Shown: positions 29,280-30,480, counted from the first letter of the stretch. The stretch is 64,000 nucleotides of DNA from a virus (IMGVR_UViG_2695420475_000001); one strand, 5' to 3'. Notes: generated from the sequence alone by a model not told the origin. Made by a program: numbers and translations.

Positions 29280-30480
29280 GAGGTCGAACTAAATTAGCTC
29301 GGGGGGAGAGATGCTGATTTGCAAGAGGTGTCAGGACGCTGCCGCACTCGGGGTACTCCCCCAGGCAAACCTCTGACCTGCAACAACACCACTCTCACCT
29401 GCTCTGCTTGCACTCTCTGGCTAATGCTTGGATGTCCTGTTAGCTGAGGCTTCGGTTGTAGGACTCTCATTGCCTCTCACCCTCTCTGACCTGTATGTGT
29501 ACAGATGGGTAGCTGTGCCCGATGATGGATAGTGTGTGACCTGCATGTATGTGGGTTAGTTACTGCGTGGTAGTCCCATATCCGTACCCATGGGCAGCTA
29601 GCACACATATCCCCTAGTAAGCATGCATAGGTACAAGTAGGGACAGTGCGTGCAGTGCTAGCTAGCGCTAGTGGAGTAGGGATGCCCTGCATGTAGAGGG
29701 GGTTTGCTGTATCTCTGCGGCCTTGACCTGCGTAGACGCGTGTACGTGGCAGCTAGGGGCCTTTATGGCATGTCCTACGCATACACCCTGGTCACAGCAC
29801 TGCACCCACCCACACATACCGGGTAGCCCATACGCACCCCGTGTGCGTGCCATGGGCCTGCGCTGCGATACCCATGCGCATGTGCACCACTAGCCCGACA
29901 GGGCGACCTTGGGTGGGTGAGCACACACAGCTACCTCCGTATATGCACTACAGGGACTACTCTGCGCCCTCCTACATGCACCACATTCGCGCGCCTGTGC
30001 CATGTATATGCAGGTAGATAGCCATATATGGCACACGAGGACATGGTGCAATATGCGTTAGCTATGCCTGACAGACACCCAACACGCCGCATGATGTACT
30101 CACATGCGTGAACATAGAATGCTGCTTTTACCTGCATATATCTGATTAATACGCACCCAATCAAAGAAAGTGCTTGTTTTTTCGTGGGTGCGTATGCCAT
30201 GATCTGTGCATGCCCAACACAGGGCATACCCCAGCGCAAGGGGTTGACATCCAGAGAAGTCCCGAGCACGTAGAGGCGGGATGGACCGGGTGGGCTAGCT
30301 GACAGACGTGGACGCGCCACCGACAGCATTGCGTTACAACTCAAGAGCTGGCCTGATCAAAGCGCTGATAAGTGCACAGGCCGACGCGAGCTAGTTGACT
30401 TGTCCTAGTTCACGAGCGGTCGCACGTAAGGAACGTCGGGAGACGTAAAAGCTGAGGGCAATCCTTCCTAACCAAGTGTG
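29280..30480. repeat. 1.2 kb non-coding region with iteron-like direct and inverted repeats (TGACCTGCATGTA / ACCTGCATATA family) and palindromes
   Basis: No credible ORF. At least seven copies of CCTGCAT(G/A)TA-like words in both orientations. GCATGC/CTAGCTAGCGCTAG palindromes. Large inverted repeat CGCACCCA...TGGGTGCG at about 30152-30192. Confidence 0.6.

Follow-up and report, generated by a model that had tools for sequence, protein, structure and literature searches.

A conserved repeat array in the spacer between cos and attP of a cluster M/MabI-type Mycobacterium abscessus phage as a candidate bank of regulator sites

Cluster A mycobacteriophages, such as L5 and Bxb1, reportedly carry stoperators, short asymmetric sites that recur many times per genome, between genes or across stop codons, in the orientation of transcription. 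The abstract of an earlier description of cluster M is said to mention "unusual sets of conserved repeated sequences," and the cluster M phages Bongo, PegLeg, and Rey are reportedly homoimmune. Here we describe a region of 1.2 kb (positions 29,280–30,480) in a viral sequence of 64,000 nt (IMGVR_UViG_2695420475_000001; hereafter the window, meaning the whole stretch), in which a first-pass annotation had noticed iteron-like repeats and palindromes, and had proposed a replication origin, a partition site, or a regulatory hub. By comparison with relatives, the region proves to be the non-coding spacer between the predicted cohesive-end site (cos; junction 29318/29319) and the predicted attachment site (attP; 30489–30546) of a serine integrase. 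Its repeats are read here, with a probability that we put at roughly 40%, as a bank of binding sites for one predicted cluster M regulator that would control the early operon ending in the integrase gene.

Judged by its relatives, the window is an unintegrated temperate Mycobacterium abscessus phage of the cluster M/MabI type. Across the region and its flanks, the window is 96% identical to two M. abscessus prophages, prophi86-1 and prophiT49-2, and prophiGD54-2 matches it at 78%–87% in the cos-proximal part only; all three records are classified as Vilmaviridae, Mclasvirinae. As in cluster M phages, the window holds 22 tRNA genes, a transfer-messenger RNA (tmRNA) gene, and an RtcB ligase gene. 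The prophages prophiGD86-1 and prophiGD54-2 belong to cluster MabI, which has a cluster M-like organization, serine integrases, and bacterial attachment sites (attB) with cores of 5–8 bp, and in which the location of the repressor was described as unclear (Dedrick et al. 2021, PMC8092301). In both cluster M and MabI phages, attP is unusually distant from int (DEPhT paper, PMC9303363). A distant blastn search with the region matched only three MabI records and found no similarity to Bongo or Rey, a plasmid database search with the region gave no match, and a literature search with the motif string returned nothing relevant. Conservation was read from a six-sequence MabI alignment comprising the window, prophi86-1 (GD86, also L009), prophiT49-2 (T49), prophiGD54-2 (GD54, also L007), L021, and L022, the last being an IMG/VR prophage almost identical to the window; Bongo (L004) and Rey (L005) were compared separately.

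The repeats noticed at first pass are real, and all of the features named there are present. Allowing one mismatch at most, TGACCTGCAT has 11 matches in 64 kb, of which six fall in 29374–30137, all on the plus strand, and one more at 30608; ACCTGCATGTA, at the same threshold, has four matches, all within 29539–30140, where 0.68 would be expected for the whole window. Repeated k-mers exceed those of shuffled sequence at z = 3.3–4.6 for k = 7–10. The array word is asymmetric, (T/C)GACCTGCAT, often followed by TGGGT, and at least five copies are conserved (Table 1). Copies had been reported in both orientations, which holds for one minus-strand copy, although all six TGACCTGCAT-matching copies are on the plus strand; at the copy placed near 29972, only the GCATGTAGG half is present. 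A second repeat family, CATACGCACCC, has three copies, two of which are the 11-bp arms of the dyad at 30149–30195.

Table 1. Coordinates of features in and around the spacer between cos and attP
Feature	Position	Strand	Remarks
Endonuclease VII (HNH-type) gene	28541–29257	-	Pfam Endonuclease_7, E = 6.5e-16; PHROG endonuclease VII
Predicted cos	29300–29375		Virion-end junction 29318/29319, from homology to Bongo and Rey virion ends
Site 1, TGACCTGCAA	29374–29383	+	58 nt from cos end
Variant copy CTCTCACCTGCT, without TGA	29392–29403	+	Near-invariant in all six MabI sequences; one change in L021
Site 2, TGACCTGTAT, then ...GATGGGTAGC	29487–29514	+	Motif 29487–29499; relatives have TGACCTGCAT or CGACCTGCAT
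Site 3, exact TGACCTGCAT, then GTATGTGGGTTAG	29537–29558	+	Bipartite form TGACCTGCAT-N-TGGGT; motif 29537–29549
Weak degenerate copy TGCCCTGCATGTA	29683–29695	+	Not conserved in L021 or L022
Second conserved word GGGGGTTTGCTGTATCTCT, GTTTGCTG family	29698–29716	+	Kept in the five closer MabI sequences, partly in GD54
Site 5, TGACCTGCGT	29724–29733	+	L021 has CTGACCTGCAT; GD54 has the flipped form TGACATGCAGGTA
Second repeat family CATACGCACCC, first of three copies	29829–29839	+	From repeat search
Inverted copy TACCTGCATATA	30005–30016	-	Retained in close relatives only
A+T-rich segment, G+C 30%–40%	30091–30180		Fourth least stable 40–60 bp duplex segment in 64 kb
Site 7, TTACCTGCATATA	30128–30140	+	Core retained in L021, L022, and T49; mutated in GD86
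Dyad ATACGCACCCA/TGGGTGCGTAT with 25-nt A+T-rich loop	30149–30195		DNA fold z = -2.3
Near-invariant non-coding block	30186–30488	+	Candidate promoter or leader of early operon
Predicted attP of serine integrase	30489–30546		Core AGCCC 30514–30518; prophi86-1 ends join here
Palindromic variant TGACCAGC-N12-GCTGGTCA	30608–30635	+	Operon leader, 55 nt before ATG
Start-region motif CACGGAGAAGGGATAC and first early-operon ATG	30643–30665	+	Conserved
Early operon	30663–37250, then integrase gene	+	Start ATG 30663
Dispersed copy TGACCTGCATTAAGTGGGTCGGG	36180–36202	+	Intergenic, co-oriented with operon, 61 nt before ATG 36241
Integrase gene	37251–38651	+	Pfam Resolvase, Recombinase, Zn_ribbon_recom; last gene of rightward operon

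Among the relatives, five sites (1, 2, 3, 5, and 7, at 29374, 29487, 29537, 29724, and 30128) retain a GACCTGCAT or ACCTGCAT core throughout in L021 and for the most part in GD54, amid flanks that are only 55%–85% identical in these two sequences, a persistence that supports the site-bank interpretation. Site 1 is kept in GD86, T49, L022, and GD54, and as TGACCTGCAT in L021, which also has a TACCTGCATGCA site at a point without a counterpart in the window. Neither the copy at 29683 nor that at 30005 is preserved in the diverged relatives. Non-coding DNA of 1.4–1.9 kb lies at the same place in Bongo, PegLeg, Rey, and prophiGD54-2, and the same word occurs 7–10 times in the cos-proximal non-coding DNA of Bongo and Rey, neither of which has detectable DNA similarity to the window in this region. 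The Bongo right end holds 10 copies of TGACCTG (2.7 expected) and Rey holds seven (0.7 expected), numbers reached in none of 200 shuffles in either case. When Bongo and Rey are aligned with each other, four sites are positionally conserved within a module of ~260 bp that also carries GTTTGCTG words and a perfect TGTGA-N6-TCACA palindrome, and a block of ~130 bp is 85%–90% identical; GTTTGCTG recurs in the arrays of both phages, and GGGGTTTGCTGTATGT is found in the Bongo left end. The palindrome, which is of CRP type, is syntenic in the two arrays (Bongo ~12085–12100, Rey ~3183–3198) and has no equivalent in the window. The first-pass annotation had allowed that the region might be unconserved junk in relatives; on the contrary, cluster M as a whole has kept the motif array.

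The base composition of the region is unusual in itself. Purine/pyrimidine alternation peaks, for the window, at 29500–30200 (0.68 versus 0.50, z = 5.3), where the steps TA, CA, and TG are overrepresented and AA/TT and GA/TC underrepresented. The same extreme alternation, with the same excess of TA, CA, and TG, is seen in two MabI lineages (window 29500–30200; prophiGD54-2 ~500–1000), even in parts that cannot be aligned, and it is weaker in Bongo and Rey than in the MabI arrays. The palindromes reported at first pass exist (GCATGC at 29631–29636 and CTAGCTAGCGCTAG at 29657–29671), as does the large inverted repeat, with arms of 11 + 11 bp (ATACGCACCCA at 30149–30159 and TGGGTGCGTAT at 30185–30195, 25 nt apart). 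The palindrome excess reaches z = 3.9 for 4 bp and only z ~2 for 6–8 bp, and short palindromes largely result from the composition of the region. L021 partly retains the dyad by means of different bases (ACCCAATC..GATTGGGT). The dyad was rejected as an intrinsic terminator, having a big loop, no T tail, and a z of merely -2.3. The highest count of repeated 8-mers in the window lies elsewhere, in the 1.2-kb bin 22801–24000 (64 versus a median of 34). A neutral spacer, whose repeats and palindromes would be by-products of odd base composition, could account for a palindrome excess that largely tracks the alternation, for two of the first-pass copies not being conserved, and for the ~5% divergence of the region, compared with 0.3%–2% in its flanks, among close relatives. 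It would not account for the enrichment of the same 8–9-mer at the same place in Bongo and Rey, where the DNA cannot be aligned, nor for site cores that are kept while their flanks diverge, and we regard it as very improbable.

Further copies of the word are dispersed through these genomes. In 56 kb, Bongo has 15 TGACCTG copies apart from those of its terminal array. Eight of the 15 fall between genes or on stop codons and all point the same way as the flanking genes, in DNA whose intergenic share is ~14% as counted from annotation tables; five of these eight share the 17-mer CTGACCTGCGATTACAG. The word TGACCTGC[AG] occurs seven times in 56 kb of prophi86-1, never in coding sequence: the array accounts for four occurrences, and the other three sit between genes and are co-oriented with them. 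One of the latter falls within the divergent early-lytic intergenic region, in which Bongo has a copy too. The window copy at 36180 has its counterpart at position 74728 of the prophi86-1 record. The window copies at 30608 and 36180, and those ahead of g73 and g134 of Bongo, stand 55–61 nt before start codons, and the start codons behind several copies carry the start-region motif CACACGGAAGGGATAC. This motif is found 4–7 nt before early-gene start codons in the window (30643, 32508, 33717, ~36218, and, on the minus strand, 41160), and it implies that the DUF932 gene starts at an ATG near 32530, not at GTG 32472. A different repeated word, GTTCATGTGGGTG, has two copies in the divergent early-lytic intergenic region of prophi86-1 (~7986–8444) and a third (~17028) separating the WhiB gene from gene 87, and the related words CATGTATGTGGGT and CGTATGTGG are at 29544 and 30562 of the window.

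Because the word precedes early genes elsewhere, pointing with transcription, the array may be read as a bank of sites for one sequence-specific factor, the likeliest candidates being the immunity repressor or an early-gene regulator of these phages. The homoimmunity reported for Bongo, PegLeg, and Rey would be in keeping with an operator word held in common. Of the roles proposed at first pass, the regulatory hub fits best, since the word marks intergenic, co-oriented positions in cluster M and a palindromic variant stands in the leader of the adjacent operon; this leader palindrome is also found ahead of the first gene of prophiGD54-2, despite a different attP there. Eight of 15 non-array copies in Bongo and three of three in prophi86-1 have the properties of stoperator-type sites, namely an asymmetric sequence, an intergenic position, and co-orientation with the genes. 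The likeness to cluster A thus lies in a short asymmetric site in many copies, intergenic or overlapping stop codons, and oriented with transcription. In contrast to cluster A, the dispersed copies are far fewer (3–8) and most copies are packed into one gene-free kilobase, and whereas the cluster A stoperators are sites of the immunity repressor, the sites described here are candidate binding sites.

The dispersed copies also bear on a reading at the RNA level, in which the region would be a transcribed element (tandem promoters, a long leader, or a non-coding RNA) with its TGACCUGCAU...UGGGU words acting as small hairpins, processing sites, or antisense targets. The strict sense-strand placement of the dispersed copies at a near-constant 55–61 nt before motif-bearing starts would suit such an element, as would the partial complementarity of TGACC and GGGT(Y)A and the full 8-bp palindrome of the leader copy, and a self-contained unit could invert between lineages harmlessly. 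However, no Rfam family matched, 30196–30490 folds no better as RNA than its shuffles (z = -0.4), the copies have no consistent -10 element at a fixed distance, and their hairpins are weak and not maintained from copy to copy, so that we hold a transcribed element to be quite unlikely.

Several observations weigh against a bank of regulator sites. The small proteins of the neighboring operon contain no DNA-binding domain by Pfam or PHROGs, and the binding protein was not found; consensus scans revealed no sigma-70-type promoter beside the sites. Arrays of MabI phages face the operon and those of Bongo and Rey mostly face cos, which is awkward if orientation matters, and the Bongo array copies are without the GATTACAG extension of the dispersed copies, so array and dispersed copies may be two classes of site in that phage. 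Finally, a dense cluster beside a meltable A+T-rich segment, together with single copies at promoters, is also the pattern of DnaA and oriC.

This last point leads to the replication origin proposed at first pass, in which the TGACCTGCAT copies would be initiator boxes, the A+T-rich segment with the 11-bp dyad an unwinding element, and the promoter copies a sign of the initiator's role in transcription. In its favor, 5–7 sites in both orientations are clustered within ~750 bp, and the array borders on a duplex segment that ranks fourth in instability in the window and would supply the adjacent A+T-rich unwinding element of an origin; the Bongo and Rey arrays are likewise interspersed with A+T-rich tracts. 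That the array is inverted between MabI and Bongo/Rey would be harmless to an orientation-independent module, and the RepA-like and DnaB genes (58.9–60.7 kb) have no iteron array in or near them. Against it, iterons would be at least three direct repeats of 17–22 bp in regular helical phasing, whereas the core here is 9–10 bp, occurs in both orientations, and is irregularly spaced (113, 50, 187, and 404 bp between conserved copies). No initiator gene is adjacent, the RepA-like (60131–60652) and DnaB (58887–60182) genes being ~30 kb away, and the RepA-like protein of 173 amino acids matches only an internal segment (profile ~170–272) of longer phage initiator profiles. GC skew merely tracks gene orientation and was rejected as an origin signal, and strict co-orientation of the dispersed copies with genes would not be expected of an origin. 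The resemblance to DnaA boxes consists in a dense cluster of a 9-bp word by a meltable segment and single copies at promoters; however, the word differs from the mycobacterial DnaA box, which we take to be TTGTCCACA, and no initiator is linked to the region. Taken together, an origin appears doubtful, if a serious competitor to the regulator-site bank. The third proposal, a partition site, was rejected: the phage integrates by a serine integrase, its relatives are integrated prophages, which runs counter to extrachromosomal partition, and no ParA or ParB is annotated within positions 1–9218 and 34000–80793 of prophi86-1.

The spacer is bounded by two sites that the first-pass description of the region overlooked, cos at its left edge and attP just past its right edge; the flanking genes that it named, a leftward endonuclease VII gene and a rightward operon of small genes, are both borne out. 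The predicted cos is placed at 29318/29319 because the reverse complement of 29300–29332, GACACCTCTTGCAA followed across the junction by ATCAGCATCTCTCCCCCCG, matches the physical ends of Bongo (right end ...GGACACCTCCTGCAA, left end ATCAGCCCCTCTCTCCCCGG...). The junction reproduces the meeting of the right and left ends of Bongo and the right end of Rey (...GGACACCCCATGCAA). Inward from the right end, TTGCAAGAGGTGTC...CCCCCAGGCAAACCTC is kept in Bongo; 57 nt inward of cos are common to the window and Bongo, and about the first 30 nt of these to Rey as well. The endonuclease VII gene has its start codon 61 nt from cos, is absent at that position from prophi86-1, prophiT49-2, and prophiGD54-2, and lies outside the homology of the window to these three prophages, which starts only at ~29300; it is probably a mobile nuclease insertion beside the packaging site. 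On the minus strand at ~25400–27700, the window also encodes a WXG100 protein, a polymorphic toxin (478 amino acids), and an LpqN-like immunity cassette, by homology to prophi86-1 genes 5–7; the cassette is near cos and the left prophage junction (attL), as has been reported for M. abscessus prophages.

The proximity of cos raises the question of whether the repeats might be an accessory packaging region comparable to the R sites of lambda cosB, organizing cos cleavage or termination by binding the small terminase subunit (19469–19957, minus strand) or a bending protein. The first site is 58–105 nt from the end in every lineage, Bongo also has copies 181–212 nt inside its left end, 29385–29445 is almost invariant in the six MabI sequences, and TerS is identified by PHROG. 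Yet the sites reach 800–1,170 bp from cos, and identical words that follow gene orientation are intergenic tens of kb away from it. Lambda cosB lies on the terminase-gene side of cos, and the array on the right-end side. The lambda cos (cosQ-cosN-cosB) thus offers a parallel in having repeated protein-binding words beside a cohesive-end site, but the present array has ten times the length, lies across cos from the terminase genes, and is composed of a word that recurs far from cos, which makes a packaging function for the array as a whole decidedly unlikely. Chi-like protection of the first-entering end was also considered and was rejected, as MabI arrays and those of Bongo/Rey run in opposite directions.

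At the other boundary, position 1 of the prophi86-1 record corresponds to window position 30518 (leftward) and its last base, 80793, to 30514 (rightward). AGCCC stands at both ends of the prophage record and once in the window, and the window therefore carries an intact attP. The predicted attP is an imperfect 58-bp dyad, GGTTAGGTGTCCTAGACCTACATACAGC-CC-GCTGTACATCGGTCAAAGACATCTAACC, with 28-bp arms that are symmetric at 21 of 28 positions around CC, in keeping with the ~50-bp imperfect dyad and non-palindromic central dinucleotide of such sites, and the product of 37251–38651 is a cognate large serine recombinase. In the L022 prophage, host DNA begins after ...CATACAG, so that its attL junction is at the same place, and in a prophage the spacer is the terminal 1.2 kb at attL. 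Imperfect palindromes of ~45–50 bp beside CCAAGTGTG probably represent attP in Bongo (~11425–11475; for example, GTGCCCTTAGTGGGCATTGATC-TC-GATCAATGTCACTTAGGGGCAC) and Rey (~2565–2615), each followed by a strong stem-loop ahead of the first gene.

Between the array and attP lies the near-invariant block, in which the window differs from prophi86-1 by one substitution from 30186 rightward, compared with 44 in 29319–30185; L021 is ~96% identical over its available part of the block. The block holds the TTGACA box pointed out at first pass (30244–30249), which has no -10 partner in a consensus scan, and CTTCCTAACCAAGTGTGAAC (30464–30483), which adjoins attP. The CCAAGTGTG element that abuts the window attP at this place is also found beside an attP-like palindrome in Bongo, Rey, and GD54. 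Scans for sigma-70 promoters and terminators gave nothing beyond shuffle expectation.

Under the regulator-site interpretation, the array and the palindromic leader copy would control expression of the rightward early operon, which comprises small genes, DUF932, and the integrase, with an ArdA-like gene in relatives. The predicted attP lies between the array with its invariant block and this operon; integration would therefore part the control block from the operon, and excision or infection would rejoin them. The first 100–250 bp adjoining cos probably also serve terminase recognition. A more far-reaching possibility is that integration works as a genetic switch, with the early operon driven and regulated from the invariant block and the TGACCTGCAT array left of attP. 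Recombination at attP would then separate the operon from the sequences that control it, the array remaining at the other end of the prophage, and the operon would be expressed only from an injected or excised genome. An origin next to cos might be marked by the same factor as well, so that one DNA word would have three uses. We consider such a switch unlikely, and the uncoupling of array and block from the operon is speculative because no promoter was found in the scans. Integration-dependent immunity of mycobacteriophages, with attP inside the repressor gene, and elements such as Tn916, in which gene expression hinges on circularization, offer a parallel in that attP stands between control region and genes, and integration would rewire expression; unlike in integration-dependent immunity, the predicted attP here is in a leader or control region and not in a coding sequence, and the promoter left of attP is a predicted one.

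The region was described at first pass as gene-free, and no open reading frame (ORF) in it is conserved among relatives. A minus-strand ORF of 137 amino acids is frameshifted in prophi86-1, the annotated "gene 1" of prophi86-1 is truncated in the window, and a hidden gene was rejected. The Rfam search of the region was negative both at the gathering threshold and at E <= 1, ARAGORN found no tRNA in it, and a T-arm suspected in prophiGD54-2 did not belong to a tRNA. A small structured RNA or gene, the alternative explanation that the first-pass annotation had kept in view, was thus not found by Rfam, tRNA, or ORF conservation. Elsewhere in the window, a full-length GOLLD RNA (RF02032, 197.6 bits; 46364–46807, minus strand), itself holding a tRNA-like call (46650–46721), lies within the array of 22 tRNAs, beside the tmRNA (48329–48685).

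Set beside the arrays of the M1/M2 phages Bongo, PegLeg, and Rey, the present one has the same surroundings, between cos and an operon that ends in a serine integrase gene (leftward in those phages), in non-coding spacers of a 1.2–1.9 kb size class that share the TGACCTG(C) word, the cos-proximal 57 nt, and the CCAAGTGTG element beside attP. The lineages differ in that M1/M2 arrays point toward cos and MabI arrays toward the operon, in the extreme purine/pyrimidine alternation of the MabI region, and in the extra endonuclease VII gene that the window has beside cos. The repeat motif may already have been described for Bongo, PegLeg, and Rey, and the MabI lineage probably adds a further example to the cluster-specific regulatory repeats already known. 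The host of MabI prophages is Mycobacterium abscessus, in which phage therapy is limited by prophage immunity, and a conserved word concentrated in one kilobase would offer a concrete lead on cluster M/MabI immunity. A predicted cos 1.2 kb inside attL and a predicted attP in the leader of the integrase operon would in addition be useful for the annotation of these phages and for vector design.

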